Virus record (IMG/VR): IMGVR_UViG_3300042673_002246
Reading direction: 5' to 3' (one strand)
DNA length: 64,000 bases
From: a virus
The notes beneath the pieces are model-generated. The model searched no databases and was not told the DNA's origin. It saw only the letters and a list, made by a program, of their open reading frames with translations. The translations under genes were made by a program, and so were the position numbers. Of the stretch, positions 1,916-30,135 are shown in pieces. Position 1 is the first letter of the stretch; each line of letters starts with the position of its first letter.

Positions 1916-2058
1916 ATCCAGGAAAGTCTTCCACCACCGTCAAGTTCCTAGGAGCTCAGAAGAACATGCCTTCCAAAAATACTCAAAAAATTGGAAATTC
2001 TTTTCCTCGTCCGCTGCCGAACCCAATTTCTGGCGGGGCTCCAACGGTAAATGGGGGC

Positions 2059-2259
2059 ATGAAGGCAATTCTTGCGATTCTGAATCTTGTGTTTGTGTCG
2101 GTCATGCTCGGCTCGGTTCTGTATCTTGCTCTGCGTGTCGTGAGCGTGGACGGCAGTGGAGTGAGTATCACACTCTCTCTGTGGCGTTGCGTAGTGCTGG
2201 CGTTGTTCTACACGCTGTGGCGACTTGTCGTTACTGCACTCTTGCGTGTGCGTGACTAA
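2059..2259 (+). CDS. small membrane protein
   Basis: Two hydrophobic segments; start uncertain. Confidence 0.35.
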   Translation: MKAILAILNLVFVSVMLGSVLYLALRVVSVDGSGVSITLSLWRCVVLALFYTLWRLVVTALLRVRD

Positions 2260-2421
2260 CAACTTATCTAGTAAGTAGATACGAGCGAATCGCATGCACT
2301 TATCTAGTTCATGTGTATTGACTAGATAAGTACCAGTGGTGATACTGACTAGATAAGTACCGAGTGTGATACACGCAATACAAGTAAGCAGAATCATTAT
2401 CAGCACTTATCTAGTCCTTTC

Positions 2422-2643
2422 TCAAACAATTTCTAAGTCAAGTTCAGCGAGTGAACTCAACTGCGAAATGAAGTCAATACCTTCGTTCCACAGTAGATTC
2501 TCGTAGTCCTCACTTGCTTTCTTTGGTGTGTACGAGCCTGTCGTAATTTCGTCCAGTATTCCAGTCAAATAATGAATCGCATGTTTCAGGCTGTCTTGCA
2601 GTTCGCTCAATGCTTCCTGCACTGCTTCATCGGGTGTGTCCAC
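2422..2643 (-). CDS. hypothetical protein
   Basis: GTG start embedded in GAAAGG-ACTAGATAA-GTG. Confidence 0.6.
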   Translation of the reverse strand: MDTPDEAVQEALSELQDSLKHAIHYLTGILDEITTGSYTPKKASEDYENLLWNEGIDFISQLSSLAELDLEIV

Positions 2644-2853
2644 TTATCTAGTCCTTTCACTTATCTAGTAGGTATTGGGAGTGCCTAGCCCTCTCGTAGA
2701 GCGTTAGAAACGGAAAGTGTATCGCTTGGTATTCAGAGCGACACACGCTCGCCGAGAGAGCGTAGGCAAGTCGTACACGGTTCTCCCCAACTGTGTACGC
2801 CAAGAGTGGGGGCTGGCTCTCACCAACCCCCACCCGAGGACTTATCTAGTCAC

Positions 2854-4395
2854 TCAAGCGAGTGGGATTTTGCCCATGTGTCTGCGCCACACATCACGGA
2901 ACATCGCTGGATAGACACTCCGTGCCGTTCCACCGTTGCTCAATGACTTGAGTTGCTTTATCGCTTCCTCAACATGAGGAACAACGATGTAGTTGTTCTT
3001 GCGAGCGTAGGTGAGACACTGCATGGCGAGTGAATCGTGGAAATTGTCGTTCACGCCACACACTCCACCGTCTGTTACCCAAACAAGAGGAGTGCGAGAA
3101 TCTTTGCGATTCTTTACGCCCCACTGAATTGCTGGATAGTCCACGCCGTTGCCGTGTCCGTAGTCAATTCCTTCCACTGTCTCAACCATGCGTCCTTTGT
3201 CGCCAACGACCCATGCGTTATGACCACGACTACCTCTGTCGGAGTAGAGCAACACAGTAGCCCCAGGGGCATGCTCAATAATTTCGGCAATTTGTTCTGT
3301 CGTGAACGACATAGAACCACTTGCGTCAATAACGACCATGCCACCACTGCCACGCACCTTTCGGTCAAACACTCGCATAGCAGGGTCGGTCATCATGCGT
3401 TGCATACGGCGAGGTCTGCGACCTGCGTTCGTTGCAATACGCTTCTTACCGATACCACCTTTGCTGTAGCGAGGCATTGGCATACGCTCAAGACGAAGTT
3501 CGCCCCATTTCGGAGTGCCAGTGGTGATAGCAGACGGAGTTATGTCCTTGAGTGGATTTCCGTCCTTGTCGCCTTCACCTTCCTTGCCTTCACCTTCGTT
3601 GCTGTGGGCTTTGGACTTATCTAGTGAGTTACCTTCGCCCTCGCCACCAGCCTTGCTCTTGCTCGGCTTTGGTTGCTTCCGTTCCTTTGGTGGTGGGAAC
3701 GAAGCGAGCCTGTCCACCCACTCGGCGAGTTGTTCCGTGTAGGTGAATCCGAACGGCGCAAGTCCGTTGTGAACTGTCGTGTTAGCCAAGTGACCAGTGC
3801 GATGAGCCTTCTTCATCTCACGCACGGCTCGCTTGCCAATGTCTAGCAGTTGGTCGCCCCATGCACGATTCACTCTGCGAACGCCGTTGAGAAATTGCTT
3901 GTGTCCAGCACTTCCAGCAGTTCCAACGCACATAGCAACTGCCATTGCCCAGTCGTTAGTTTCTGCGCAACGCTGTCCACTTGCGAGTTCGCTTCCGTCA
4001 GCAAGGTGTTTCTTTACATCTATCCCTGCCTGTTGGCAGAGAAAGTTCACACGAAGTTCCTCAACGACAGTGAGTGCTGTAGCCGAAGCCATTTCACGCT
4101 TGACCCACTCTGCCATTTGTGCCGAATCAGGCGACACCTTTGCGTGCATGAGTTCGTGCGCACGAATCGCCCGAGCCTTGTCGTCATTGTCCGTTGGTGC
4201 GAACATGATTTTGTTAGTCACATCGGTCATTGGCTCGCCACGCACGGCTTGGCAGTGTTCTACTGTCCAAACTCCGTGTGCTTGGTCACGCCGACCGAGA
4301 AGGGTTGCCTCGGCTTTGGCGTTACCCCGAGTGGACTTATCTAGTCCACTCGGGAACGCCTTGCCAGCAACATGCTTGCCAGCAGGTTGAGACAT
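2854..4395 (-). CDS. VWA-domain protein with N-terminal HExxH metallopeptidase-like region (MoxR partner)
   Basis: AHELMH...EELRVN; MIDAS motif VIDASGSM and WVTDGG; translationally coupled to AAA+ gene. Confidence 0.8.
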   Translation of the reverse strand: MSQPAGKHVAGKAFPSGLDKSTRGNAKAEATLLGRRDQAHGVWTVEHCQAVRGEPMTDVTNKIMFAPTDNDDKARAIRAHELMHAKVSPDSAQMAEWVKREMASATALTVVEELRVNFLCQQAGIDVKKHLADGSELASGQRCAETNDWAMAVAMCVGTAGSAGHKQFLNGVRRVNRAWGDQLLDIGKRAVREMKKAHRTGHLANTTVHNGLAPFGFTYTEQLAEWVDRLASFPPPKERKQPKPSKSKAGGEGEGNSLDKSKAHSNEGEGKEGEGDKDGNPLKDITPSAITTGTPKWGELRLERMPMPRYSKGGIGKKRIATNAGRRPRRMQRMMTDPAMRVFDRKVRGSGGMVVIDASGSMSFTTEQIAEIIEHAPGATVLLYSDRGSRGHNAWVVGDKGRMVETVEGIDYGHGNGVDYPAIQWGVKNRKDSRTPLVWVTDGGVCGVNDNFHDSLAMQCLTYARKNNYIVVPHVEEAIKQLKSLSNGGTARSVYPAMFRDVWRRHMGKIPLA

Positions 4396-5123
4396 TATTT
4401 CACCCCGTCAATGGCGAGTGCGTCAAGAATCTGACGGGAACGGTCGCCGAAAGTGAGTGAGCATGCTCGTTCCATGCCAACGCTCGCACGGAGTTTGTCC
4501 AATGCGATGAACGCACGAAGTGAGATACGGTCGTCACCAGCGTCAGCCATGCGAACGGCGTACTTGCGCAAGTCAGGAGACAAGCGAAGCAGTGCGCTCG
4601 GGTGTGGCTCGTTGATACGAATACGAATCGGGAAACGGTCAGCGAGTGCTGTTGGCAACTCACCCATGTTCTCAATGTTCGTGGTCATAATTGCCGAGAA
4701 TCCACCGAGAGGACGAATCACTTCGCCAGTTTCAGGATGCTCAAACGAAGCAGATTCAGGTGAATCCAACATCGCCAAGAGTGTTGCGAACACATCGCCC
4801 GAAGCCTTATCTACTTCGTCCACGATGAGTCGTCCACCCTCTGTTCCGTTGCCCTTCCATGCCTTGAGAGCCGAACCGTCCAGCCACATGAAGCCACCTT
4901 TGCCGTTCGGCATGAAGCCACCTGTAACATCCATGTTCGTCATGTCCTCGGTGCAGACCAGTCGGAACGCACCAGCGTCCACTTTGCCGAGCGTCATGCC
5001 AGCGTAGGTCTTTCCGATACCTGATGGACCGTAGAGGATTACTCGGTCTATCCCTGCGTTGAGGCAGTCCTCAAGTGCTTTCCAGCACTCGGGGAGAGCC
5101 GTTGTTTCTGTCTGTGCAACCAT
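4395..5123 (-). CDS. MoxR/CbbQ-like AAA+ ATPase
   Basis: Walker A GPSGIGKT, Walker B LIVDEVD, sensor TTN, ALADRF arginine finger. Confidence 0.85.
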   Translation of the reverse strand: MVAQTETTALPECWKALEDCLNAGIDRVILYGPSGIGKTYAGMTLGKVDAGAFRLVCTEDMTNMDVTGGFMPNGKGGFMWLDGSALKAWKGNGTEGGRLIVDEVDKASGDVFATLLAMLDSPESASFEHPETGEVIRPLGGFSAIMTTNIENMGELPTALADRFPIRIRINEPHPSALLRLSPDLRKYAVRMADAGDDRISLRAFIALDKLRASVGMERACSLTFGDRSRQILDALAIDGVK

Positions 5124-5167
5124 TGGTATTTCTCCGTTTCTAGTAGTTGGGTTGGTTGTCGTGTACC

Positions 5168-5196
5168 ACTGTAGCGACCCGACAGCAGATTTATCT
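5168..5196 (-). promoter_or_regulatory. phage promoter AGATAAATCTGC-N11-TACAGT
   Basis: Member of 20-copy fixed-spacing class; upstream of AAA+ gene. Confidence 0.7.
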
Positions 5197-5311
5197 CGCC
5201 ACTTATCTAGTTAGTTCATACCACTTATCTAGTCAGTCCACTTATCTAGTTAGTTTCACTCGGACACTTATCTAGTTGGTTCCAGCCACTCGGTAATCGT
5301 TCGGCAACTTG

Positions 5312-5381
5312 CACCCGACCACCCCGAGCCTCGCCAACTTACACCCGACCACCCCGAGCCTCGCTTCCTTTGGAAGCCCCG
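5312..5381. repeat. boundary element: 2x CACCCGACCACCCCGAGCCTCGC then AGCCCCG
   Basis: 23-bp direct repeat at 5312 and 5342; AGCCCCG at 5375. Confidence 0.8.
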
Positions 5382-5430
5382 CGGACTTATCTAGTTAGAT
5401 ACAGAATTATTAGATTTTTGACTTATCTAG

Positions 5431-5910
5431 TTAGTCAGGTCGCTTGGCGATAGAGATTCGGTACAAGCCACGCTTGACCTTGATGAACTCTGGAGTTTCG
5501 TTCACGAACCCGAGTGTCGTCTGATACGAGAATCCACACTGCTCAACCAGTTGCTCGGTGGTGAACTCTTTACCGTCTTGGGTCTTTGCCCACTCCATAA
5601 ACGCACCCCATTTGTCCTTGCGTTTTTCAGGCTTCTGCATTGCTTCCCTCTGGACTTCCTTGCCACAGTATGTCTGAATAATGTGGTCGGCGATGTGGGG
5701 AAGCACGGAGTAAGAGTTCAGGTAAGAAAGCACATTTTTGCTTCCACCTTCCCTTTGCCATAATTGCAGTACATGTAGCCCACGAATCAGTTCGCTGGCA
5801 TTGGACGCTTGTTCTTTGGGAATCCGATACATCGTTCCGAATTCTTTTTCCATTTCCTTCCACATCTCTTTGTGGATTCCGTCAATGAATTCATCAGTCA
5901 GTTTTTTCAT
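5431..5910 (-). CDS. hypothetical protein with C-terminal winged-helix-like segment
   Basis: EFTTEQLVEQCGFSYQT...FIKVKRGLYRI; class promoter at 5956-5984. Confidence 0.6.
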   Translation of the reverse strand: MKKLTDEFIDGIHKEMWKEMEKEFGTMYRIPKEQASNASELIRGLHVLQLWQREGGSKNVLSYLNSYSVLPHIADHIIQTYCGKEVQREAMQKPEKRKDKWGAFMEWAKTQDGKEFTTEQLVEQCGFSYQTTLGFVNETPEFIKVKRGLYRISIAKRPD

Positions 5911-6274
5911 GGCTACCTTTCTAGCGGAACTTTATCCCGACTTGCCCGTCACTCCAGATTATCTTTTGGTAGGCAGACTTATCTGGTACGGCAACGCAAG
6001 AAAGTTATTTTTTTGACCACCTGACATCGAGGGCACTTCCTTTCCACCACCGTCAATTAGATTCACCACCCCCCGGGAATTAAATTTGTCAAATTTTTCA
6101 TTTTTTTGCACGTTCTGGCGGCCGGCTGCGGCGGCTCTGGATTTCTGGATTTTTTGGCAGCGAAACGCGGGGCTTACATGGTGAATCGGGTGCATAAAGA
6201 AAGAGGGTGGGTTTGACCCCACCCCCTGACTTATCTAGTTAGTTATCGGACTTATCTAGTAACTAGATAAGTGG

Positions 6275-6673
6275 CTACTGGTTCTTGAGAAAATCCTCAA
6301 TGTCGGGAATCGTCTCTTTGGCTATTTCCCGTGCTTCCGAATAAGCCATAGCGTCCATAATCAAGTCGTCCAGCATGTCTGCCAATGCACGGTCGTCCTC
6401 TGTGAGCAATGGTCCATCAGGACTTGGCACAAGAAACTTTAGCGCCTCATCCTTCTCCTTGTCGGGGAGTTGTGCAATTTCTTGCACCTGCGAGAAACTG
6501 AATCCCATTCGGTGACCATGATTCTGATAAACAAACAGTGCCTCGGTCAATGTCTGCAATGCGTCAAATCCGAATCTGATAAACGGATTCTCGGTGGGAA
6601 ACTCGGTGTTATCAGAGAACACTTTTTTCATTATTTCTTGCATTTCTTCATCATGGTTTTGTTGTTCGCTCAT
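6275..6673 (-). CDS. hypothetical protein
   Basis: ORF with GAGG SD. Confidence 0.65.
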   Translation of the reverse strand: MSEQQNHDEEMQEIMKKVFSDNTEFPTENPFIRFGFDALQTLTEALFVYQNHGHRMGFSFSQVQEIAQLPDKEKDEALKFLVPSPDGPLLTEDDRALADMLDDLIMDAMAYSEAREIAKETIPDIEDFLKNQ

Positions 6674-6822
6674 TTCACTTCCTCTTTCTGTTTGTCGTTG
6701 GTTATTAGCGAACGCAGGTCAAGCAACATGTCGGTCATTTCCGATGAAGCAACTAAGTCTCTGCCCGAGCAGTGACGAATCATTGTGTCCACCAGTTCGG
6801 TTGCTGTAAGTGTTTGGGTCAC
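6670..6822 (-). CDS. small hypothetical protein (50 aa, below ORF-track cutoff)
   Basis: GTG start inside ACTAGATAAGTG; MTQTLTATELVDTMIRHCSGRDLVASSEMTDMLLDLRSLITNDKQKEEVK; ATGA overlap with next gene. Confidence 0.65.
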   Translation of the reverse strand: MTQTLTATELVDTMIRHCSGRDLVASSEMTDMLLDLRSLITNDKQKEEVK

Positions 6823-6826
6823 TTAT

Positions 6827-7531
6827 CTAGTTCCCTTCTTTGTCGTTGTCGGCTTCGGTGAGCAAGGTGTGAAACGCCTTTGCCTTTATTGCCATTTTCA
6901 GGTATGAAATCGTCTGAAGCATGGCATTGGTGAAACGAGCCTCAGCCATTTCGCTGTTCTCATCTGTCAGGTGAACAATGTCAGTGTCCACATCATCAAA
7001 CATCGGTACACCTTGGTCGTCATAGGTGTAGGTGCTTGCGCTCATGTAAATCTTGTCCTGTTCCCAGTCCACGCCACTTACTACAAGACCCTCACGAACA
7101 TCGGTGAAAGGGTTGTTTTGGAACTCATCTTTCAGCGATTCTCTTTCACTGTCACGGTCGGCTGGAGTCGTCAGGTCTGTGAAGCGACGCATGTAACCCT
7201 CAACAGCAACAAAGATGAAGTTCACTGGTGCTGTAGGCAAGTGACCAACAGCGTCAATGTAAGCGTCGTATGGGTCGCCTTTGTGAATCAGTGGAAGCAT
7301 GGCAACATCGTATTGGCGTTCCAAGCCCAACTGCTTTGTGTATTGACTTGCTGATTCAGCCAATTCATCATCTGTATCATCAGACTGGTGAATACGACCA
7401 ATGATGAGCATTGGTGGGGTGTCGCTCATCGCAACCTCTTTGCACATTTCTTTTTTTGCATACTTGTTTCGGCGCATTACATCGCCGAGAATCTTTAGTA
7501 TGTCGTTTGAGATTACTTGCTGTTCGCTCAT
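6827..7531 (-). CDS. hypothetical protein
   Basis: AAGGAG SD; class promoter at 7562-7590. Confidence 0.7.
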   Translation of the reverse strand: MSEQQVISNDILKILGDVMRRNKYAKKEMCKEVAMSDTPPMLIIGRIHQSDDTDDELAESASQYTKQLGLERQYDVAMLPLIHKGDPYDAYIDAVGHLPTAPVNFIFVAVEGYMRRFTDLTTPADRDSERESLKDEFQNNPFTDVREGLVVSGVDWEQDKIYMSASTYTYDDQGVPMFDDVDTDIVHLTDENSEMAEARFTNAMLQTISYLKMAIKAKAFHTLLTEADNDKEGN

Positions 7532-7561
7532 GGCGTTTCTCCTTTGGTGGTAAGTACCAAC

Positions 7562-7590
7562 ACTGTATCTATTAGTAAGCAGACTTATCT
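7562..7590 (-). promoter_or_regulatory. phage promoter AGATAAGTCTGC-N11-TACAGT
   Basis: Fixed-spacing class member. Confidence 0.7.
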
Positions 7591-7638
7591 AGTGAGTATG
7601 GGTGGGGTGTCCACTCCCCACCCATTTCACATCAGGCA

Positions 7639-7863
7639 TTATTTTGCAATAATGTCTTGGGCGTTCACTTTCATCGCTTCGCACAACAATAGAAATGTCG
7701 TCATGCTTGGCGAGAAATGTCCGTTCTCAATGCGATTCACCGTTTTACGGTCAATGCCAGCCTTATTCGCCAGCGTTTCTTGTGACCACTCACGCTCAAG
7801 TCTTTCGTTCTTGAGTCGCTCTGCGATTCGCATTGTCTTTTTCTCAATGGCTGTAAGTGCCAT
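7639..7863 (-). CDS. XRE/Cro-C1 family HTH transcriptional regulator
   Basis: LKNERLEREWSQETLANKAGIDRKTVNRIENGHFSPS. Confidence 0.85.
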   Translation of the reverse strand: MALTAIEKKTMRIAERLKNERLEREWSQETLANKAGIDRKTVNRIENGHFSPSMTTFLLLCEAMKVNAQDIIAK

Positions 7864-7897
7864 GTCTTTCTCCTTTGTTTCTTGGTTGATTTTGGGT

Positions 7898-8665
7898 TTA
7901 GGACTTATCTAGTAAGTAATCGTCATACTGACTGAACGATAGTTTCTCCTTTCGCCTCTGATTAGAACGAATCCACGACACGATGAGTTGCATCGCCTTG
8001 TCGCACGAATCAACCATTTCATCGTCACGGTTTGCTCGCCACTCACTCTGTGCTTCCCAGTATTCGTCCATTTGTTCATCGGTATCTTGGGGCATGCCCT
8101 CTATCTCCGAATCCATTTCGGTTACACCTTCGCCCTCAACAATGAGTTCGCCATTGTGGATTACAACCCAACCAGCAAAGAACTCGGCTTCTTCCGTGAA
8201 CACGACACCGAATACAAGTTTCGGGAACTGCTTTGAGATACGAGCGATAAGACCGTTACACGGCGACCATGCTGACTGGTAATACATTGAGACAGAACCC
8301 TTGTTGTAGTCGTCATCAGATACGCCAACATCACCTGCGCCCCACTTGCTTCCCCATACGGCGTTGGCATAGTCGTACCAGTCCTTGTAGCCGTACTTAT
8401 CTAGGTTGTCTTGCATTTGCTTTTTGTGTTCAGCCTGTTTGTCCTCGGGAACTGAACCCGAAACCGTGTTCATCAACGCCTCGGGAATCGGGTCAAGGTG
8501 GTTGAGTGAATCAACTTCTACTTCTTTTTCACCAGTGGCTACCCATTTGCCGTCTTGGATTTCTCCAGTCTTTTGCAATTCCTTTATCTTGAGTGATTTC
8601 AGGAATCGCTTGAGTTCAGGTTTCGGACCTGACACCTTCATTGTGTTACTGCACCAGTTTGGCAT
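7898..8665 (-). CDS. DUF1281 / YubB ferredoxin-like family protein
   Basis: MPNWCSN start; DWYD...WGSKWGA...SAWSP motifs; class promoter at 8698-8726. Confidence 0.7.
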   Translation of the reverse strand: MPNWCSNTMKVSGPKPELKRFLKSLKIKELQKTGEIQDGKWVATGEKEVEVDSLNHLDPIPEALMNTVSGSVPEDKQAEHKKQMQDNLDKYGYKDWYDYANAVWGSKWGAGDVGVSDDDYNKGSVSMYYQSAWSPCNGLIARISKQFPKLVFGVVFTEEAEFFAGWVVIHNGELIVEGEGVTEMDSEIEGMPQDTDEQMDEYWEAQSEWRANRDDEMVDSCDKAMQLIVSWIRSNQRRKEKLSFSQYDDYLLDKS

Positions 8666-8943
8666 GCTCGCCCTTTCGTCTAGTAGTGGTACGACCCACT
8701 CTAGCCCCACACCAGCAGATTTATCAACCTGACTTATCTAGTCAGCATGTTCTTCCACCACCGTCAATGTCTTGATGTGTTCTCAACCCGACCCGACTTT
8801 CACCCGACCCACCCGTGAGCCGACCCAACTTCTTGCCGACCACCCCGAACCAGCCCCACCCCATCACTTACCGTGTAAGCCCCGCGTCCCACTGTTTAGC
8901 CGGGGCTCAAAGGGTCGAGCTGGTTTAATTTGGTTGGACTTAT

Positions 8944-9273
8944 CTAGTCAGTAATGATTTCGTCTGCGTAAACGAGTTGTGTTTCGCTGACACGCCAGCC
9001 GTTCTGATGGTCCGTCCATGCGTACTTGATAAGTGCCGTCCACTTATCTAGGTAGTCATAAATCTCATCATCGGGAATCCCATAGTCGTCAAAATACGAA
9101 GTGTCGTTCGGGTCTGGCGAGAAAGAGAAATAGACAAATGAGCGACCCTCTGGAAACTCCACTCTGCACTTGCTGCCGATGAGAATCAGACCACGAGCCT
9201 TTATTGCGAGCATGGTCAGAAAGAGCCGAATCGTAACCCATAGGGGAACGAAGAACTTATCTAGTAGGTTCAT
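8944..9273 (-). CDS. hypothetical protein
   Basis: ORF in coupled operon. Confidence 0.55.
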   Translation of the reverse strand: MNLLDKFFVPLWVTIRLFLTMLAIKARGLILIGSKCRVEFPEGRSFVYFSFSPDPNDTSYFDDYGIPDDEIYDYLDKWTALIKYAWTDHQNGWRVSETQLVYADEIITD

Positions 9274-9499
9274 ACGCCATCTCGTTTACGTCTTTGCCGA
9301 GAAGTTGGTCTGTAGTCAGCCGAATTATTGAGCGCACAATGTCGTCACTTGTTATGCCCCACGAATCAAGAGCCCACGCCAATAAAGTTCCATTTGCTAA
9401 ATCACCACAAATTGCTTCTATTGCTTGAGCCCGTGTCGTGGCAAGGAAGTAGTAGTTCTCCCACAAAATCTTGTCTAAATCTTCAGGCGTCAGAACCAT
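9257..9499 (-). CDS. hypothetical protein
   Basis: AAGGAG SD, overlaps neighbours. Confidence 0.6.
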   Translation of the reverse strand: MVLTPEDLDKILWENYYFLATTRAQAIEAICGDLANGTLLAWALDSWGITSDDIVRSIIRLTTDQLLGKDVNEMAYEPTR

Positions 9500-9765
9500 T
9501 TCTCTCCTTTCACGGAAACAGTAGTCCGTACCACCCCAGTTTCGGTAGCAGAAACCACGACTGGAGTCAGCACCTTGTATGCGTTTATCCAGTACTTAGA
9601 CCGTTCAGCAGACCTGACCCATTTCGCCCTTTCTTCATCGGTCATGTATTCCCACTCATCGGGCATTTCATTGGTGGGGATACTCCACTCCTCAATTATT
9701 TCTTCTTCTTCGTGTTTCACAATTTGTGCGCTCGCACGGACTGTGATGTGAACATGGGCAGTCAC
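9490..9765 (-). CDS. hypothetical protein
   Basis: GTG start in GAAAGG-ACTAGATAA-GTG. Confidence 0.6.
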   Translation of the reverse strand: MTAHVHITVRASAQIVKHEEEEIIEEWSIPTNEMPDEWEYMTDEERAKWVRSAERSKYWINAYKVLTPVVVSATETGVVRTTVSVKGEKWF

Positions 9766-9778
9766 TTATCTAGTCCTT

Positions 9779-10279
9779 TCAGTACCAGCAGGTAGAGCCG
9801 TCTGCCTCATCGGCAGTCCAACGAAGCCACCAAATCGCATAACGAATCTGAGGAATCAAATCCTCACCGTTCACGATGAACTCTGGAGAATCCTGAATCT
9901 TTTCGTTCAGAAACCATTCCATTTGGTTGGCAGTTGCTCGGCAACTCTCTGGAGACTTCTCCGTACCTTCCTCATTGTCGCCATAGAAATCGTATTCGCT
10001 AATGCCAAGAGCGTCAATGAGGTAGTTCCCCCACTTACCCCGATACCAGCACGGAGTTCCGAACATGCCGTACACAGCACCTTCGGTCATGCCACTTGCC
10101 TTGACTGCTGTCTGATACGGGCATGCGTTGCGATTAGCAGTTTCCTCACAGGAAATGCTTTCCACGAACTCACCGTCTTGTCCACGAATCGGCTGACCTT
10201 CCTTGTCCAGTCGCCTCACCATTACTGCCGTGCCTTTGGACTTGCACGGGTAGTTCTTCGGTATGTTGTCTAATCCCAT
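9779..10279 (-). CDS. hypothetical protein
   Basis: MGLD start, SD, class promoter at 10311-10339. Confidence 0.7.
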   Translation of the reverse strand: MGLDNIPKNYPCKSKGTAVMVRRLDKEGQPIRGQDGEFVESISCEETANRNACPYQTAVKASGMTEGAVYGMFGTPCWYRGKWGNYLIDALGISEYDFYGDNEEGTEKSPESCRATANQMEWFLNEKIQDSPEFIVNGEDLIPQIRYAIWWLRWTADEADGSTCWY

Positions 10280-20081: not shown

Positions 20082-20096
20082 ACTAGATAAGTAATG

Positions 20097-21719: not shown

Positions 21720-21725
21720 TTACGC

Positions 21726-22031
21726 ATGTCTCGCCTGCGAATAGAAAGAACAGAGATGTCTCAAATCGGTGAGCCCTCACAGCCTTCGTCAAAGGCGAAG
21801 ACAAGCACAATCAGCTTCGACGAGTGGCTCCACATCGGTCTAGAAAATGACTGGTGTGGACCACCCGTATGCTCAATACATGACGGTATCCCAATGAGCG
21901 AAGCTGAAGAAGAGGAATTTCAGGAAGGTGACCCGTGTGTGCACATCATTCGTTTGTACGAAGATGAAGAGCAAAAGAAGTTGGTAGAAGACTTCCACTC
22001 GCCATCCAATTGGCGTAAACCACTTATCTAG
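21726..22031 (+). CDS. hypothetical protein
   Basis: ORF; start uncertain. Confidence 0.55.
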   Translation: MSRLRIERTEMSQIGEPSQPSSKAKTSTISFDEWLHIGLENDWCGPPVCSIHDGIPMSEAEEEEFQEGDPCVHIIRLYEDEEQKKLVEDFHSPSNWRKPLI

Positions 22032-22208
22032 TTAAGTTCACCCACAGCACTTATAACGGCCACGACGAGGTGGTCTTTGGCTTGTTTTGGCTTCTGATAC
22101 AGGAACAGCACGACGAGTGAAATTTGGTGCTTCTGTTTCCTGCTCTTGTTTTTTCTTTTTAGCCATACCCTATTTTCTCATAGGGAAGCAGCTCTATGGT
22201 GGAAGCGC

Positions 22209-22415
22209 CTAGAACAGGGCTATTTGGATACCACCAGTATCTTCTACTTGTTTGCAGTAGTTGTGCTTGTATTCGTGAAGCTCGTCAATAACTTCGGAAA
22301 TTGTTGTCCCCTTGGCTTTAAGCCAAACAACAGCTTTACGTTCGCTAATCGAATCTTGTGGGCGCAACGGTAGACCACATACGCAACACGTGAACAACGG
22401 TGGGAGTGAAGCCAT
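22209..22415 (-). CDS. hypothetical Zn-binding protein
   Basis: CCVC...HNYC. Confidence 0.5.
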   Translation of the reverse strand: MASLPPLFTCCVCGLPLRPQDSISERKAVVWLKAKGTTISEVIDELHEYKHNYCKQVEDTGGIQIALF

Positions 22416-22421
22416 AATCTA

Positions 22422-22619
22422 TTACCACTTTCCTACTGGGCATTCAGCCTCAATTAGTCTTGTTTTTAAATGCATGAAGCAACCACACACAGCGCACTGC
22501 TGCGTTTGGCGCAAGAATTCAGGGCATGCCTTGCAGATAGCGAAGCGCTCCTGTTGTTTCTTTTCGGTCGTGTAATTCTGTCGGCGCAGCAAGTGCCAGG
22601 GCATGTTTCGTCGTCTCAT
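22422..22619 (-). CDS. small Cys-rich protein (DUF6171-like)
   Basis: RFAICKACP...CAVCGCFM..KT...AECPVGKW. Confidence 0.55.
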   Translation of the reverse strand: MRRRNMPWHLLRRQNYTTEKKQQERFAICKACPEFLRQTQQCAVCGCFMHLKTRLIEAECPVGKW

Positions 22620-22873
22620 AACTTAATCCCGACCACCCCGTGCCTTGCTATCAAATTTTAAAAATCCGTACAGAACTAGCAAGAGCAGCACGGAAACAAT
22701 AACGCTGTTGGTATCCATGGACCCATGATAGCGATTTTCTCGCTTTTCATCAAGCTCACTGATAAACCTGCTTTCCTCGACTTAGGATTCACATCGCAGA
22801 CCGGCAGGGCTCACACTCTCCTTTCGGTATCCAACACACGTGAGCCTTGTCGGTCCTCATTTTTATCTGTACA

Positions 22874-24811
22874 ATGTCCATCGTGAAGTTATTTTTAGAC
22901 CACAACGAAATAATTCTTGATTTTCCATTTGATGCCGGCCAGGTTGAGGAAATAAAACGCATATCAGGTGCAAGGTGGGACAAGATTGGCCGTGTGTGGC
23001 GCTTACCAATTACGGCTATCAATGAAGGTCGTGAGTTTGCATTGCGTCATAACTTTGAGGTCACTGTCGATGCTCTAAAGTTCTCCGTACCAATACCTGC
23101 TATAGGGCGCACCGGTGCTCGTGTGTATGTCGATAATGGTATGGCGGTTATCCGTGTGCCTTATGAGCGAGTAATCATTAAGGCTATTAAACAAATACCT
23201 GGCATTACATGGGATAGCAAAATGCTTGCATGGAAAGCCCCCCTTACATCGATTACAAATATCATTACGTGGGCCAAATCTTTCGGCGTTACCGTAGACA
23301 ATGAGCTAATGGACATGGCTGTACAAGTAGAGACAGAGATGACTGAATTGATACAGGCATCACGCTCGGTAGACGCAGAGATACAGATACCTGAACTACA
23401 AGGCGCACTGCTGCCGTATCAGAAAGCTGGAGTTTCGTACGCTGCAAGAGCCCGTAGGACATTTATCGCTGACGACATGGGTCTCGGAAAGACACTGCAG
23501 GCGATGTCCACGCTCGAATACGTTCACGACAGTTACCCAGCAGTCGTTGTATGTCCACCAAGTCTCGTGCTTAACTGGGCGAGTGAATATTCGAAGTGGT
23601 ATCCACATCGCAAGGTGGCCACTGTGACGAACCGTAAGTCATTCCCTGACGCAGGCACATATGACGTTGTGGTAGTTGGATACAGCAATATCGCTACATG
23701 GGAGAAGCAACTATCCAAACATCGCTCGTACGTATGGGATGAAAGCCACTATCTAAAAACGCCCACCTCGCAGAGAACGAAAGCAGCAGTCAAGATAGCT
23801 CGTAGCGCACCAAAAGAAGGTCTCGTATTGTGTCTCACGGGAACACCCGTAACGAACAGGCCGAACGAATACGCAAGCCAACTTGATGTACTGGGTCGCC
23901 TCAAGGACTTTGGTGGGTTGTGGGGTTTCTATCGACGCTATTGCGCTGCATACCAAGACAGTTTTGGTCAGTGGAATATCAGTGGACACTCACACCTAGA
24001 CGAACTCAATGACAGGCTTCGTGGCACTTGCTACATACGCCGTACGAAAGACCAAGTGTTATCGGAGTTGCCACCCGTAGTCCATAGCAAATTGCTGGTA
24101 GAGGGCTCATCACAAGCGATGAAAGAATACAAGAAAGCAGAGAACGACATTATTCTCTACATCGCAGAGCGAGCCCGACAACTCGCCATAGAGCAGGGCA
24201 AGTCACAGCACGGCGCTGCCATATCAGCAATGATTAGGGCAGAAGCGAACGAACATTTAGTCCGTCTGTCGGTGCTTCGCCGTCTTGCTGCGAAAGCAAA
24301 GATGGAAGTCGCTCATGAGTGGATTACTGAACGTATAGAGGCCGGCCGTAAGGTCGTTGTCGCTGCACACCATCGAGACATCGTTGACGAAATCGCCCGT
24401 AAGTATGGAGACCTACGTATTCAGGGTGGAATGAAGGTTGAGGAAGTAGAGGAGAATAAACGCAAGTTTCAGCAGTTAACCGTAGATAAAGCACCCGTAA
24501 TCGTGTTATCTATCCAGGCTGCCAAAACTGGACACACACTCACTGCGTCAGAGGAGTGTTTATTCATAGAACTTCCGTGGACACCAGCAGACGTAGACCA
24601 GACATACTCACGCCTACATCGCATCGGACAACAAGGAAGCGTGACGGCAACTTATCTATTAACTAAAGACACCATTGATGAGGAGATTTATCAACTCATC
24701 GAGCGAAAGCGTTCGGTGGTAAATGCGTCAGTAGAAGGTGGGGAGTTCGCTAACGAGGATAGTGCCGTGCAACTTATTCTGAATTTACTCGGTAAAGCAG
24801 AACAGAACTAA
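22874..24811 (+). CDS. SNF2-family helicase with tandem HARP-like N-terminal domains
   Basis: DDMGLGKT, WDESH, LTGTP, SRLHRIGQ; two FPFD/VPYE...IPG..WD....W repeats. Confidence 0.85.
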   Translation: MSIVKLFLDHNEIILDFPFDAGQVEEIKRISGARWDKIGRVWRLPITAINEGREFALRHNFEVTVDALKFSVPIPAIGRTGARVYVDNGMAVIRVPYERVIIKAIKQIPGITWDSKMLAWKAPLTSITNIITWAKSFGVTVDNELMDMAVQVETEMTELIQASRSVDAEIQIPELQGALLPYQKAGVSYAARARRTFIADDMGLGKTLQAMSTLEYVHDSYPAVVVCPPSLVLNWASEYSKWYPHRKVATVTNRKSFPDAGTYDVVVVGYSNIATWEKQLSKHRSYVWDESHYLKTPTSQRTKAAVKIARSAPKEGLVLCLTGTPVTNRPNEYASQLDVLGRLKDFGGLWGFYRRYCAAYQDSFGQWNISGHSHLDELNDRLRGTCYIRRTKDQVLSELPPVVHSKLLVEGSSQAMKEYKKAENDIILYIAERARQLAIEQGKSQHGAAISAMIRAEANEHLVRLSVLRRLAAKAKMEVAHEWITERIEAGRKVVVAAHHRDIVDEIARKYGDLRIQGGMKVEEVEENKRKFQQLTVDKAPVIVLSIQAAKTGHTLTASEECLFIELPWTPADVDQTYSRLHRIGQQGSVTATYLLTKDTIDEEIYQLIERKRSVVNASVEGGEFANEDSAVQLILNLLGKAEQN

Positions 24812-25275
24812 TCGGTTTCGGAACTTGTTTCCGACTTACCCGTGGCACCCTGGGTGCGACCGTAAAATATTTCCTCTGCAATTAGTTTGGAATATTTCTT
24901 ACGCAAGCGCCATATTTTCTTGTTCATTTCAGTCATCTCTTGGCTCATTCGAGCTTTGATTATTGCTTTGTCGTCATACACGCCGTGCCCATTAAATAGT
25001 GCGTCATGGATATCTGCGTCCTCAATGATGATGTCTGATATCCAACCGGCACGTTTGTCTATTGCCATCATTAATTCACACAAACCCTCTACGCCGAATT
25101 CATCGTGAATTCGATTTGCGATTATTGAGCAGAAGTGTGAACGATACATATTTCTCGCTTTCTGCGAGTTAGACATGAACTCGGATATGAACAGCGCAAG
25201 TTCTTCCTTTGTCGGCATTTCTTCGCCATCATCACCGGCAAATTCGTAAAAATCGTCTGCGCCGTCGTTATTCAT
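24808..25275 (-). CDS. hypothetical protein
   Basis: ORF with GAGG SD. Confidence 0.6.
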   Translation of the reverse strand: MNNDGADDFYEFAGDDGEEMPTKEELALFISEFMSNSQKARNMYRSHFCSIIANRIHDEFGVEGLCELMMAIDKRAGWISDIIIEDADIHDALFNGHGVYDDKAIIKARMSQEMTEMNKKIWRLRKKYSKLIAEEIFYGRTQGATGKSETSSETD

Positions 25276-25323
25276 CTTGCCTCACTTTTCTATGGGCTTG
25301 ACTAATAATACCCGTACTAGAAG

Positions 25324-26349
25324 TCAGACATTTGTTAATAGATAAGTTTGAGTTTTTAGTTTTGTTCTCGTCACCCATGAGTTGTTGTCCATGGACGCGA
25401 GCGCGCGTTCATCGCGAGAAGCATCTCGGTAGTGGTCGAGATATTCGCCGATGGCGTTATAGATTGACCAGCCGTTGTACCCGTAGTTCTTTGCGTTGTT
25501 TTCGTTTTCATAAATAGCGCGAACTAGCGACAACACGTCATCACGGTTCTTTCTCTGACGCTCTGTGCTATTTGGCTCTATCGGAAATGCTGTATTTAGG
25601 ACTTTGTCAAGAACTTGTGTGCGTGCTGGAACTTTCACTGCCAGTAGTCGTTCGGCAGTAGCAGCAAAGTTGTTTGCCCATTCATTAGATATCGCAAGAA
25701 CTTCATTCGCTTGCTCTATCGCTCTGTCTGCATTACGAGTGTGACGAGCAGTAAATACCCGTCGAGCGCTTTCTATGCCAAGCGTTACGGTATTTTGACA
25801 TACGGCACGAATAGAAGTGTTGGCGAATGTAATTGCCGTCTTTCCATCGTGTCCATTGCGAACAAGTAAGTAGCGCGCTATTTGGTCATTCACGCCAGCA
25901 GGGTCTACGACTATCGCGCCCAAGTCAAGTGAAGCAAAGAAACCTTTTCCATCGTGTAGAACACCGGCGGTATCTACAACTGCGTCTCCTTCGGAAGCAC
26001 CCACGATGCTTAGCGCATAATCCAAACACTCTTTATTCTGCTGAACTACATAACGCGTTCCAACGGTGGCCAAACCGGTGAATGTGCCGTCAATGTTGAC
26101 CCGTACGGTTGCACGACTGTCCGGCACGAGAATAGTTGTGCCATCAGGGTTCCGTAGTGGTTCGCCATTGTCATCGCAAATTGCCACCCGTGTTGTGACT
26201 ACATCGAAGTTCGCCTGTGAAGCTTCGAGCATTGCCTCTGCCGTTTGTAGCCCCTTCATTGGCGTTCCAAGCCTGTGCCACGGGATTTCTCTGTCGGCGT
26301 ATGCCATTCTCGCTGTGCCGTCTTTATTGATTTCTAGTCCGTGTGCCAT
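25324..26349 (-). CDS. DUF932 family phage/plasmid protein
   Basis: MAHGLE...PWHRLG...YLLVRNGHDG...IRAVCQNT...RHT. Confidence 0.85.
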   Translation of the reverse strand: MAHGLEINKDGTARMAYADREIPWHRLGTPMKGLQTAEAMLEASQANFDVVTTRVAICDDNGEPLRNPDGTTILVPDSRATVRVNIDGTFTGLATVGTRYVVQQNKECLDYALSIVGASEGDAVVDTAGVLHDGKGFFASLDLGAIVVDPAGVNDQIARYLLVRNGHDGKTAITFANTSIRAVCQNTVTLGIESARRVFTARHTRNADRAIEQANEVLAISNEWANNFAATAERLLAVKVPARTQVLDKVLNTAFPIEPNSTERQRKNRDDVLSLVRAIYENENNAKNYGYNGWSIYNAIGEYLDHYRDASRDERALASMDNNSWVTRTKLKTQTYLLTNV

Positions 26350-26489
26350 TTCGTGTCTTTCCTTCTCTCTCTTTTAGATAAATCTAACCGAGTATTGCCT
26401 GGTTCATTGTACACCGGGGCTCCAGAGGCAGGGGCAGTGGTTGGGGTTCGGTCTGTGGCGAGGGCGCACGGGTGGGTCGGCAGAAAGTC

Positions 26490-26518
26490 GGATAATTCTG
26501 CTCGTCAATGGTTATGAT
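26490..26518 (+). promoter_or_regulatory. phage promoter GGATAATTCTGC-N11-TATGAT
   Basis: Variant class member. Confidence 0.6.
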
Positions 26519-26554
26519 TTATTCAGGAACTAACGCTCGTGAAAGGGGCAACTA

Positions 26555-26833
26555 ATGAAGTTACTAGATAAGTGCGAAAACTGGTGTCAGGAACATTATC
26601 TCGGAACGATGAAGGCTCTGCTCGGCATTATCTCTGCCGTGCCGACTATCGGACTGTTCGGAGTGGTTCAGGCGTACTACAACAGCAACATCGGCGACCT
26701 GCTGACCTGTTTGTTCATCGTGGTAGGTGGAACGGTGATTACCACCCTATTCGCTCTGACCGTGTACAACGAACATCAAGACGAACGCTACGGCTCTATT
26801 CGCCGTCACCCAGTCACGAAGCGAGTGCGCTAA
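26555..26833 (+). CDS. small membrane protein
   Basis: Two TM segments; AAAGGGG SD. Confidence 0.6.
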   Translation: MKLLDKCENWCQEHYLGTMKALLGIISAVPTIGLFGVVQAYYNSNIGDLLTCLFIVVGGTVITTLFALTVYNEHQDERYGSIRRHPVTKRVR

Positions 26834-27534
26834 TGACTACGACAGCACTGGACACCCGTAGCGTGTTAGCAGAAATGCTAACAGAAAACACTGGAACGCA
26901 CATCTTGGACAGTGGTGGCGCATACGGCAGGAACTGGGAACGAAACAATGGCAAGACGCTTGCCGATTTTGAGAACGAACCGACTGCGTGGGCTGACGGT
27001 TATGGCGTAGTGCTTTCAGTTTTTCACTTTCTTGCGAACCGTGTGGAGTTTCTGCCGAGTATCCAAGCCGAGTTAGATGATTTGGCACGGTGTATGCCTG
27101 ATGAGGGCTGGTTGGCTATCGCCGAGACACTGGCTGAACGCTACGACCCTAAGCCTCGTACTTGGAACACTTACAACGGCGAGGACAGTCTTTCGCAAAC
27201 ACTACAAGGCGTATCGTTCACCCGTAATGACGGTGAGACTGTGAGCCTTATTCAGATACACGGGGGCTGTGATGTTCGTGGTGGATACACGAAGCCTCGT
27301 GCTTTCCGTGTGACGGTGGAAATGGCTGACTGTTTCCCATACGACCACAACTCTTATGAGTTGGAGTGTCCGACTGATAACGAACACTCTCTCTCGTATT
27401 TGGGTGAGTACATCGGTTGGCACGGGTCAAGCATTGACGCTGATGAGTATCCGACATACGACAGCGAGAAGCGAACAGCGAACTGTGTGAAGTGTGGTTC
27501 GCCATTCATCGTTCACGCCTCTGAACCGTACTAG
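26833..27534 (+). CDS. hypothetical protein
   Basis: Start at TAATG overlap; ENTGTHILDSGGAYGRNW, IHGGCDVRGGY. Confidence 0.7.
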   Translation: MTTTALDTRSVLAEMLTENTGTHILDSGGAYGRNWERNNGKTLADFENEPTAWADGYGVVLSVFHFLANRVEFLPSIQAELDDLARCMPDEGWLAIAETLAERYDPKPRTWNTYNGEDSLSQTLQGVSFTRNDGETVSLIQIHGGCDVRGGYTKPRAFRVTVEMADCFPYDHNSYELECPTDNEHSLSYLGEYIGWHGSSIDADEYPTYDSEKRTANCVKCGSPFIVHASEPY

Positions 27535-27767
27535 ATAAGTCTCAACGGTCACCCGTAGCCTCTGCGCTCTTATCCCCAACCCCCTTTCATCAAGGGCGTA
27601 GGGGTTACGGGGTTTCACTTATCTAGTGAGCATTACTCTGCTACGGCGAGACTATGACTTACTAGATAAGTGTTCATCACAAGTGAGGGCAAAGTGCGAA
27701 GCACTGCGCCAGCCGGGGCTCCGAGCGTTTGAGTGTGGTTTGTGTTGTAACTAGATAAGATGATGAG

Positions 27768-28100
27768 ATGAACGAGAACACCTATCGAACAGCAAAGACA
27801 ATTCTCATCGCTATCGCAATAACACTTGCGTCAGTATTCGCATTTGGGTATTTGGAAAGACAGCAAGCAAGAGACAGTGAGTTCTTTTGTGATGGCACAC
27901 CAGTCACTATCAAAGAAGGCGACACTCTCTATTGGATAGCCCGAACAAAGTGTGAAGGCAACACTATGGAAGTGGTGGACAGACTTGTCGCCCTGTACGG
28001 CACGACATTGACTATCGGTGACACCATCTATCTGCCGACACACAACTCCTGTGAGTTGCGTATGACAGACGGTGGTCAAGTAATGGAAGAGTGTGCGTGA
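27768..28100 (+). CDS. membrane-anchored LysM-domain protein (paralog of 13077-13376)
   Basis: TM helix; TIKEGDTLYWIA...LTIGDTIYLP. Confidence 0.75.
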   Translation: MNENTYRTAKTILIAIAITLASVFAFGYLERQQARDSEFFCDGTPVTIKEGDTLYWIARTKCEGNTMEVVDRLVALYGTTLTIGDTIYLPTHNSCELRMTDGGQVMEECA

Positions 28101-28109
28101 TGAACTTAT

Positions 28110-28313
28110 CTAGTTCAGTATCTGTCCAACACTGACAACGAAAACTTCTCCACAGTAAAGCACACGGGCGTACTGTTTATCTGTGTCGTGGTATGAGATG
28201 AACTCTGCTTCCACAGCACCCGTAGTCATTCGGCGTGCCTTGTCTGAAACGATGTGACCGAACGACACTGGTATCAACAGCGTCTGACCTACGGTAAGTC
28301 CTTTGGTAATCAC
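28110..28313 (-). CDS. hypothetical protein
   Basis: Coupled ORF. Confidence 0.5.
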   Translation of the reverse strand: MITKGLTVGQTLLIPVSFGHIVSDKARRMTTGAVEAEFISYHDTDKQYARVLYCGEVFVVSVGQILN

Positions 28314-28498
28314 TAGATGCCGTATGTTCCGAGTTGAGTGCGCTCTGCTTGGCGCAAGACTTCGTAGATTTCGGAAACATGCGCTTCCGTGTGTTCATCA
28401 TCAGCGAACAACCTGACTATCTGTAAGACACACTCCAAGCGAGCAACCTGCTGTGCCGTAAGTGTGATAGTGAGTTCTGCGTTTCGTGCTATTCCCAT
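28313..28498 (-). CDS. hypothetical protein
   Basis: SD; class promoter at 28520-28548. Confidence 0.55.
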   Translation of the reverse strand: MGIARNAELTITLTAQQVARLECVLQIVRLFADDEHTEAHVSEIYEVLRQAERTQLGTYGI

Positions 28499-28546
28499 TG
28501 TGTTCCCCTTTCGGTATTGACCTTAGGGTAGGGCGAGCAGACTTAT

Positions 28547-28954
28547 CTATTTACTATCTGTGACATCACGCCACTGACCATCAACGACCACCTGATAGTG
28601 CGCCCCCGACACTGGCACGAGTTCGCCATTAGCATTGCGTTCATACTTGCCGAAGTTCTCAGTGGAACGCCATGCCCACTCACAGCACGGTGTTTCACTA
28701 TCGCAGGGGTGTGTCCCCTTACCTATCGTCTCTGCCAATGCTGGGAACAGAGTAAGGAACTTCACTATGCAGTCGTGACACAGTATCCAACTACGGCTAC
28801 GGCGATTACTAAACAGTACATCTACCTCATCAGTGAAGCCACCATAGTAACCAAATAGGTCAAATGGTAAATCCCAACCGTTACTAGGTAGGTGCTTTTG
28901 TTCATCGCACTGGACATCGTAGTCACAACCTGAACAGCGAACATGGTTACTCAT
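28547..28954 (-). CDS. hypothetical Cys-rich protein
   Basis: Class promoter at 28964-28992, near-leaderless. Confidence 0.6.
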   Translation of the reverse strand: MSNHVRCSGCDYDVQCDEQKHLPSNGWDLPFDLFGYYGGFTDEVDVLFSNRRSRSWILCHDCIVKFLTLFPALAETIGKGTHPCDSETPCCEWAWRSTENFGKYERNANGELVPVSGAHYQVVVDGQWRDVTDSK

Positions 28955-29016
28955 AACATCTCAACGATAGTCGTATGCGAGCAGACTTATCTAGTACCCG
29001 TAGCACTTGGCGACTT

Positions 29017-29430
29017 CTATGACTGGCGTGTGTTGAGGCGAAGGTAGGCAGAGTAGGCGTAGTTGCGTTGGCGTTGGCGTTCGGCGTGTGCCCTCTCTGC
29101 GTCTGCTGGGGGCATACGGTCTATCTCATCATCAGTGGGTGCGAAGCCTATCTCCCTCTCTGCTTCTAGCATCAGTGACACAAGGCTAAGCGTGTGGGTG
29201 TCTGCGTACTCACCCGTAGCGATGTGGCAACCTTGTTCATCTAAGTCAAGTGCCAACAGTTCGCTTGCTACCTTTGAGATGAATACACCTGTGAGTTTCA
29301 TCTGCGACAGGCGTTGGTGTGTGGTCAGGTGTTCGTTCGCTGTCCTCTTAGACCGAAGCAACTGTGTGTACATACTGTTGCTTGGAACGAAAGCGACAAA
29401 CTCTGATGGGGTTGGCTCTTGTGTTGTCAT
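29017..29430 (-). CDS. hypothetical protein
   Basis: ORF. Confidence 0.5.
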   Translation of the reverse strand: MTTQEPTPSEFVAFVPSNSMYTQLLRSKRTANEHLTTHQRLSQMKLTGVFISKVASELLALDLDEQGCHIATGEYADTHTLSLVSLMLEAEREIGFAPTDDEIDRMPPADAERAHAERQRQRNYAYSAYLRLNTRQS

Positions 29431-30135
29431 CTCATCTCTCTCTTGTGTTTGTGTGTGTCGTGTGTATGCGATGTGTATGAGCGAGGCTCTGCGTGGCTAA
29501 GCCCACACCAGACCCGAAACCCGACAGACCCGACAGTGCTGTTGGTTTTGTTGGCGTGTCGTGTTGCGTGTTGGATTACATCGGGTGTGTGGTCTCTCTC
29601 TCGGCGTGTGTCTTACTGAAACACTTGGATAAATCGTCTTGCTGTTTTTTGGGGTGTCGTATTCGGGTCGTGACTTATCTAGTGAGTTGTGTCGTTTTGT
29701 AATCAGCCAGAAACCATCGGCACACACTGCGAGAGACTGCTGTGTGTCCTCTGCGTGTGTGGACTTGTTGCCGACTACCCCGAGTACCGACACAAATTGC
29801 GAAAAATTGTTCGCAGTGTCGCCTCGCAGCACCTGTCTCTTGTAGCCCCGCGAAACTTTCTCGGTTGAGGCAGGGTGGGTGGGGGAGCAAAATCGCAAAA
29901 AATTCATCCCAGGTTTTTCACTTAAATTTATCCAATGCATACAGCTCGGCCGCCAGTTTGCGGACTTTCTTCCAGTGTCTTGATTGTCTCCCATTTGCCC
30001 CCAGACAGCATGGGATGAGCCCTGTGAAGGACAAATGCATGAATGCCCTGTCTTCGTATGCTTCAATCACGTCCGGTGAATCCGAGTACAAAGCGTCCTG
30101 TGTTTCTTTCACGGTTCAAGCGTATACTGAAATTC

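Follow-up and report, generated by a model that had tools for sequence, protein, structure and literature searches.

In this study, the occurrence of short sequence words was investigated in a 64,000-nucleotide stretch (hereafter the window) of the IMG/VR virus record IMGVR_UViG_3300042673_002246, which belongs to an uncultured tailed phage. All coordinates refer to the window, corresponding to bases 459-64458 of the 133,891-bp linear record (G000), unless another genome is named. We observed that two blocks of this phage genome have been purged, by 10- to 50-fold, of at least 16 words with the character of restriction sites, and that GATC is the only one of them avoided in the remaining genome. 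Block I (2034-20197) is an 18-kb array of approximately 30 small genes, mostly on the minus strand up to about 17000 and on the plus strand at 17423-20081, while block II (26415-29850) covers 3.4 kb and avoids the same words. The explanation that we favour, with some reservation, is that host Type II restriction selects on early gene cassettes, which would act before the protection of the phage is in place.

Depletion of restriction-site-like words

A preliminary description of the window had named CCGG, GGCC, AGCT, TCGA, TTAA and CGCG as nearly absent from 2041-20190 and 26422-29843 and common downstream of them. The counts agree on both points, and the depletion proved to be stronger than was claimed. 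The first segment (18,150 bp) holds 14 copies of CCGG, 7 each of AGCT and CGCG, 6 of GGCC, 5 of TCGA and 2 of TTAA, and the second (3,422 bp) holds one CCGG, one TCGA and none of AGCT, CGCG, GGCC and TTAA, while 29844-64000 contains 66-141 copies of each (AGCT 141, TCGA 124, TTAA 113, CGCG 86, GGCC 68 and CCGG 66). Beyond this list, ACGT (8), ATAT (2), TATA (2) and GATC (0) are equally depleted in block I. For both blocks together (21.6 kb), the totals are CCGG 15, ACGT 8, AGCT 7, CGCG 7, GGCC 6, TCGA 6, TTAA 2, ATAT 2, TATA 2 and GATC 0, where the base composition leads to an expectation of approximately 80-90 for each avoided palindrome.

Among the 136 strand-symmetric 4-mers, the 11 lowest in the blocks (ACGT, AGCT, ATAT, CCGG, CGCG, GATC, GGCC, TATA, TCGA, TTAA and CCGC/GCGG) have observed/expected (O/E) ratios of 0.00-0.17, and the twelfth stands at 0.40; ten of these 11 are palindromes, for which the chance probability is 2e-10. 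Quasi-palindromes likewise make up six of the seven lowest 5-mers of the blocks, where CCWGG (1 seen, 44 expected), TTSAA (1, 41), GGWCC (5, 44), CGWCG (6, 44) and GGAGG/CCTCC (2, 44) are all rare, these words being normal or enriched in the bulk of the genome. Even six-base palindromes built on tolerated cores (n = 24) number 45 in the blocks against about 126 expected, compared with 626 against about 632 in the bulk. Per kb, the 11 words number 31 in the bulk, 23 in the 6.2-kb island between the blocks (20198-26414), 8.3 in the non-coding parts of the blocks and 1.15 in their coding parts, and the longest site-free run of the blocks extends over 3,346 bp. GATC is missing from all 133,891 bases of G000 as well as from all 158,714 bases of the relative G002, against an expectation of approximately 400-500.

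It is practically impossible that this pattern is a mere by-product of base composition, codon usage or a repeated motif. The blocks are indeed higher in G+C than the rest (0.51-0.54 versus 0.45) and are full of one 11-mer, ACTAGATAAGT, but the depletion persists under Markov nulls of order zero, one and two (O/E <=0.29 for all 11 avoided words under the first- and second-order expectations), and six palindromes of similar composition are untouched. When the synonymous codons of 30 block genes were shuffled, every avoided word gave a z of -5.0 to -9.7, with the tolerated AATT, CATG, CTAG, GCGC and GTAC within about 2 standard deviations (sd) and TGCA at -3.7. A composition or codon artefact is thus ruled out, and the depletion withstood the very correction that the preliminary description had proposed as its test. 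The enrichment of CTAG that the same description had ascribed to the motif is also real, at 1.15-1.5 times expectation and mostly through ACTAGATAAGT. In G002 the same avoidance is found with another 11-mer, AATAGATAAGT, which follows about 15 nt after hairpins with regular 17-nt loops, and with no enrichment of CTAG; the avoidance is therefore independent of the motif sequence, and the motif is ruled out as the cause of the depletion.

The avoidance is symmetric with respect to the strands. In the part of block I that is coded on the minus strand, the asymmetric words CCGC/GCGG, CCAGG/CCTGG, TTCAA/TTGAA, GAGTC/GACTC and GGAGG/CCTCC are near zero in both orientations; it is therefore double-stranded DNA that is read and not the message, and a strand-specific avoidance at the RNA level is ruled out. 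GGAGG and CCTCC occur 0 and 0 times in 15 kb (2041-17000), and the same holds for 42700-59900 of G002. The ribosome-binding sites in this GGAGG-free block are AAGGAG- or AGGGGG-like, and GGAGG/CCTCC behaves like another avoided recognition site. Additionally, GAAGAC, CTCTTC, GAATGC, CCATCC and GTCAAC, which are frequent in the bulk and which we take to be Type IIS-like sites, were seen only 1-2 times in the block where 11-23 were expected from their bulk frequency.

Block edges, hairpins and residual sites

The edges of both blocks are sharp and lie at half-elements of a hairpin. Block I is delimited by CGGGGCT at 2034-2040 and AGCCCCG at 20191-20197, and block II by CGGGGCT at 26415-26421 and AGCCCCG at 29844-29850 (all on the plus strand), the last of which has a homologous element at position 73018 of G002; the borders given earlier (2041-20190 and 26422-29843) are thereby refined to 2034, 20191, 26415 and 29844. 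Within block I the two halves face each other and form hairpins with loops of 16-40 nt and stems that are often extended, AGCCCCG-N(16-40)-CGGGGCT, and these adjoin copies of the 11-mer. The block region contains 36 copies of the 7-mer AGCCCCG/CGGGGCT, compared with a single one (at 898) in the other approximately 106 kb, where about 8 copies are expected. The 11-mer itself spans 2262-29683 and follows the direction of transcription; with at most one mismatch allowed it has 80 matches where 0.74 are expected, and as it hardly occurs outside the blocks, its distribution is coextensive with the avoidance.

The sites left over in the blocks are not randomly placed, 28 of the 73 lying within 12 nt of a hairpin element. 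Clusters were found at 5924-6167, 8882-8925, 13498-13511, 17099-17488 and 18818-18873, where the preliminary description had located them, and a few sites lie in further places. Block II retains only two sites, a CCGG at 27713 within a CGGGGCT element and a TCGA at 27785.

Ongoing selection and cassette exchange

In order to measure selection, G000 was set against relatives of 98-99% identity in three comparisons, counting whole haplotypes and taking random substitutions of the same spectrum as the expectation. Substitutions in the blocks created avoided words 10, 4 and 7 times, where 47.9 (sd 7.1), 39.0 (5.9) and 35.7 (6.5) were expected, which amounts to 10-20% of the random rate. For tolerated palindromes, the gains of 18, 16 and 18 were in line with the 23.6, 19.5 and 17.0 expected. 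Gains of avoided words in the island and the flank were only mildly under expectation (8 against 14.4 and 10 against 17.4). From the deficit in the blocks it follows that purifying selection is acting now and is local to them. The suggestion made earlier, that the blocks were acquired from a pool under different restriction pressure, is insufficient by itself, as the block is syntenic, vertically inherited and selected in place; swapping of cassettes at hairpin junctions does take place.

The alignments point to such exchange as a real process. Relatives of G000 break from its alignment at 13454/13529 and at about 14387, at junctions, and in two of them the cassette 13529-14387 is replaced by an allele of 83-85% identity between flanks of about 95% identity; other relatives have contigs ending at junctions (8925, approximately 14600, 15381 and 17078/17134). 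This raises the possibility that selection acts on mobile cassettes, which would recombine at the hairpin/motif junctions among related phages, either because site-free cassettes are rescued from a doomed genome into co-infecting or resident relatives or because the past restriction by many hosts has accumulated in them. If avoidance were a property of the mobile unit, its stop at the junction elements would be explained, and the position of block edges and of 28 of the 73 residual sites at or near half-elements, the contig breaks and the swapped cassette all agree with it. Some cassettes also have vocabularies of their own, as 13626-14245 tolerates only ACGT (5 copies) and the G002 counterpart of block II (71.0-73.0 kb) tolerates only ACGT and TCGA, and the conserved, non-mobile genes of the island are exempt. 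Nevertheless, we consider this explanation rather doubtful. The syntenic and best-conserved block genes, which encode a MoxR-class AAA_5 ATPase and a 513-aa partner protein, are just as poor in sites as the variable cassettes. Moreover, a lethal cost per site agrees better than an advantage in rescue with how strong the purge is (O/E 0.02-0.1) and with the deficit of new sites.

Relatives and lineage-specific vocabularies

The relative G002 (158.7 kb) shares about 65% amino acid identity with G000 in the 513-aa protein and about 72% nucleotide identity in conserved genes. Its collinear 17.6-kb block (42383-59966) lacks exactly the eleven 4-mers that are avoided in G000, and likewise the 5-mers, so that the avoidance has been maintained through roughly 28% nucleotide divergence between the two genomes.

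With the AAA_5 protein as an anchor, at least 111 related loci were recovered from IMG/VR, and vocabularies were obtained from 43 AAA_5-anchored loci as well as from loci anchored on the DUF932 protein of the island. In the loci with enough sequence, each lineage has purged its own subset of palindromes from the region upstream of the ATPase gene, and the flank past the gene of the 513-aa protein is unpurged. AATT is added to the avoided set in L036, L037, L045 and L052, while L030 and L066 tolerate ATAT, TATA and CCGG. GATC is avoided only in the block of L066 (0.03 against 0.91 in its bulk), is not avoided in L091, and is purged together with AGCT and TCGA from block and bulk alike in L095. 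Among the DUF932-anchored loci, L115 avoids CATG, GTAC and TGCA and tolerates AATT, ATAT and TTAA, and in L102 and L103 the avoidance extends across the island genes. The repeated 11-mer varies by lineage as well. Overall the pattern has two tiers, with few words purged from the whole genome and many from the block only.

A separate observation concerns the 3 kb next to the DUF932 gene in L102 and L103 (6001-9000). This segment has a G+C of 0.58-0.66, 19-25 CGCG per kb and little or no AATT, ATAT, TATA, TTAA, TGCA or AGCT (AGCT <=1 per kb), a vocabulary very different from that of G000.

In view of the type of the words, their avoidance on both strands, the sets that differ by lineage and the two-tier pattern, host restriction-modification is the most likely selective agent, and the restriction pressure proposed in the preliminary description is well supported by these features and by the polymorphism data. 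It was also considered that the avoided words might be targets of the phage's own early nucleases, which would destroy the host DNA, so that phage DNA present at that time must lack them. This idea has been published by Davison for the A1 protein of T5 (10.1101/866236), and the genome-wide absence of GATC could be a self-immunity to a GATC nuclease of the phage. It is very unlikely here, as it would require at least 16 specificities, close lineages with the same conserved block genes differ in their avoided sets, and none of the block proteins was assigned to a nuclease family.

Proposed mechanism and the site-rich island

We propose that the blocks would constitute a hyperplastic early or accessory region, in which small and often acidic proteins are encoded in cassettes joined by the hairpin (AGCCCCG-loop-CGGGGCT) and the 11-mer motif. 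These cassettes would be the first to enter the cell, the first to be transcribed, or both, and would have to stay intact and expressed while the incoming DNA is still unprotected, so that the Type II enzymes of the host would select continuously against their own recognition words in them. A later or differently acting protection would cover the remaining genome, and words that escape this protection, GATC in the present case, would be purged from the whole genome. DUF3846, DUF4314, DUF6011 and DUF1281_C, which are present in the blocks, are domains typical of anti-restriction neighbourhoods and count in favour of this proposal.

Several observations weigh against it. The two purged blocks are separated by the conserved, site-rich island, and two spacers within block I (e.g. 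17099-17488) are denser in sites than the bulk; a joint exposure of 2034-29850 should have purged the sites of the island and spacers too, at least if every site adds a separate risk in the race with protection. Simple first entry therefore does not follow, as a single contiguous first-entering segment does not predict the island. The termini of the genome were not located, five complete relatives circularising with overlaps of 56-127 bp (the k-mer size), and psiM2, which is among the phages with the nearest large terminases, is presumably a headful packager. To our knowledge there is no restriction enzyme for ATAT or TATA. Finally, both restriction-modification as the agent and the early expression of the cassettes are inferred. 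Exposure before protection remains the best reading of what the preliminary description had proposed for these blocks; its further idea of first-entering DNA is not demonstrated, given the unlocated termini and the island between the blocks.

The island has near-normal word frequencies (23 sites per kb), although GATC is missing here too. Its genes code for a basic protein of 308 aa, a Lys/Ala-rich one of 92 aa, an SNF2 helicase, a protein of 155 aa and the DUF932 protein. In G002 it occupies the same position and is equally site-rich, with 68-76% amino acid identity; it is therefore ancestral, and a recent insertion is ruled out by this synteny and site richness and by its own lack of GATC. 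The exposed DNA thus does not form one contiguous stretch of the kind expected from T5, and the island interrupts it in G002 also.

The avoidance is coextensive with the motif-bearing cassettes and stops at half-elements, which suggests exposure per cassette, an island made late-entering by the placement of the termini, or selection on mobile cassettes. As to why exposure would stay confined to the cassettes, we infer, as a tentative possibility, that it is set per transcription cassette and not by the position along the entering end. The motif-driven early units would then be naked or indispensable, the island, the spacers and the bulk would be shielded (e.g. by virion-delivered or histone-like proteins) or repairable, and the half-elements would act as domain borders. 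One island gene would be relevant to shielding if its product coats DNA, namely that of the 92-aa Lys/Ala/Pro-rich protein (21441-21719, plus strand), which is histone-H1-like or HU-tail-like and has a good ribosome-binding site. Its G002 counterparts are limited to weak Lys-rich matches at 96.0 kb and 64.3 kb. The contrast of block and bulk yielded no frequent bulk-specific word able to nucleate a shielding protein.

Protection of the remaining genome

A search of G000 for C5, N4/N6 and D12 DNA methyltransferases, TGT/DpdA and ThyA-like hydroxymethylases found none, so that self-methylation or a known hypermodification protecting the bulk has no gene in G000. Among the ten largest open reading frames (ORFs) of the 28 kb that are missing from G000 and were read from the relative G001 (tail-fibre, endolysin and other genes), no DNA-modifying enzyme was seen either. 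As G000 carries no known modification gene, the protection of the bulk is more likely temporal or physical than self-modification, for instance by later entry, by early or virion-borne anti-restriction functions, or by shielding.

The contrary explanation, in which the bulk and the island are covalently modified against restriction and the cassettes stay unmodified, e.g. in order to be readable by the host RNA polymerase, and must avoid the words for that reason, is unlikely. The only hints of modification that were found are a DUF1599 ('nucleotide modification associated') protein encoded immediately to the left of the block (56-724, minus strand) and a ParB_N and PAPS-reductase pair elsewhere in the genome (L134, 9295-11295). 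Against them stand the lack of the above enzymes in G000, the absence of a known mechanism by which nucleotide modification at the level of the pool would spare an 18-kb stretch, and the avoidance of at least 16 unrelated words, for which no single modification motif accounts.

With regard to the genome ends, the repeats of 56-127 bp in the circular assemblies are an artefact of assembling circular paths, and the 170-kb contig G004 has no end repeat.

Comparison with known systems

With reference to the literature, the kind of avoidance described here is known, while its strength, breadth and sharpness, the selection at the population level, the lineage vocabularies and the exempt island are new. 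In T5, EcoRI sites are cut only in the first-step-transfer DNA, and the protection of the remainder has been ascribed to early functions (10.1101/866236). The blocks resemble this DNA in taking up approximately 10% of the genome, in their small genes (which would be early ones here) and in containing a palindrome-rich non-coding stretch. They differ in that T5 involves one enzyme, a defined terminal repeat and a two-step DNA transfer with an injection stop, whereas at least 16 words are near zero here and the region is split by a conserved site-rich island.

In Autographiviridae (Murciavirus), only the Type I motifs in the first-injected leading region, which is highly variable and rich in anti-defence genes, decide the sensitivity to restriction (PMC12455610). 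That case was established experimentally for a single Type I motif, whereas the present one concerns many Type II-like words of 4 and 5 bp and is a footprint in the sequence. Avoidance of restriction sites over whole phage genomes was described by Rusinov et al. 2018 (PMC6286503), and the complete absence of GATC from the 134 kb here and from the 159 kb of G002 is of the same pattern, with the same selective logic; the main signal here, in contrast, is regional and sharp-edged and would become diluted in a whole-genome statistic. The leading regions of conjugative plasmids are first-acting, rich in anti-defence genes and higher in G+C, and their palindromes of 4-8 bp are 'not consistently depleted' (PMC13478746). 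The phage block is likewise richer in G+C than the rest, but its depletion is 10- to 50-fold.

The architecture of the blocks is reminiscent of the hyperplastic regions of T4-type phages, where a promoter/stem-loop element (PeSL) lies between small variable early ORFs (PMC2839356, PMC4122927). In both cases a short composite motif with a stem-loop is repeated between small ORFs, and it is at these junctions that close relatives differ by replacements or indels. Neither the sequences nor the phage groups are related, and purging of restriction sites is not reported for PeSL regions in the abstracts of those articles.

Regional avoidance has so far been described for single enzymes in T5 and for one Type I motif in T7-like phages. 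To these the present data add a large and widespread clade of uncultured phages of approximately 150-170 kb, in which at least 16 words are avoided by 10- to 50-fold with edges sharp to a few bases, and in which selection is ongoing and measurable in natural polymorphism. This offers a way of delimiting the unprotected part of a phage genome from sequence only, makes it possible to deduce which restriction enzymes unknown hosts possess, and separates the enzymes that the phage protection neutralises from those that escape it. If exposure is indeed set per cassette, the vocabulary of a lineage would read out the Type II repertoire of an uncultured host population, and the block would map unprotected phage DNA at base-pair resolution. 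The island, which the textbook model of first entry does not predict, may point to local shielding or repair.

Phage, gene content and other features of the region

The presence in G000 of an HK97-type capsid protein, a portal, a T4-type large terminase, a primase-helicase and a class II ribonucleotide reductase identifies the record as a tailed phage. Its completeness is estimated at 89%, and its near-identical and more distant relatives in IMG/VR comprise contigs of 151-170 kb, five of which assemble as circles; the genome is about 160 kb in size. Among GenBank phages, the closest large terminases belong to Gordonia, Brevibacterium and Arthrobacter phages and to the archaeal phage psiM2, and an actinobacterial host is plausible. 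A megablast search of the block against GenBank phages gave no match.

The block genes are small, many of their products are acidic (pI 4.1-4.8), and most are of no known function; searches of PHROGs and NCBIfam left most of the block proteins with no function assigned. The families recognised are the four DUF families mentioned above together with the AAA_5 ATPase and its partner. The ATPase gene (4395-5123, minus strand) is the best-conserved gene of the block, with 83% amino acid identity to G002. The 513-aa partner (2854-4395, minus strand) is the last large gene before the left edge; it falls into PHROG 33218 (function unknown), and it matched no Pfam family and, by sequence, no relative of known structure.

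Two spacers of block I deserve separate description. The site-dense mini-island at 5924-6167 lies mostly upstream of the motif copy at 5977-5987 and ends at the CGGGGCT at 6168. The palindrome-rich spacer at 17099-17531, between the divergent gene sets, carries approximately 30 sites in 390 bp and includes a possible 74-aa ORF (17197-17421). The contigs of two relatives end in it (aligned to 17078 and 17134), and it is a candidate for an origin, a packaging site or a terminus region; its site cluster is not conserved as such in G002.

At the outer end of block II, a G-rich GGGTGGGTGGGGG run is located at about 29870-29895, just outside the AGCCCCG edge element. Three loci of one lineage (L105, L109 and L111) start with a (TACC)n microsatellite; it lies at the outer edge of their own block II, in a place that matches that of the GGGTGGGTGGGGG run.

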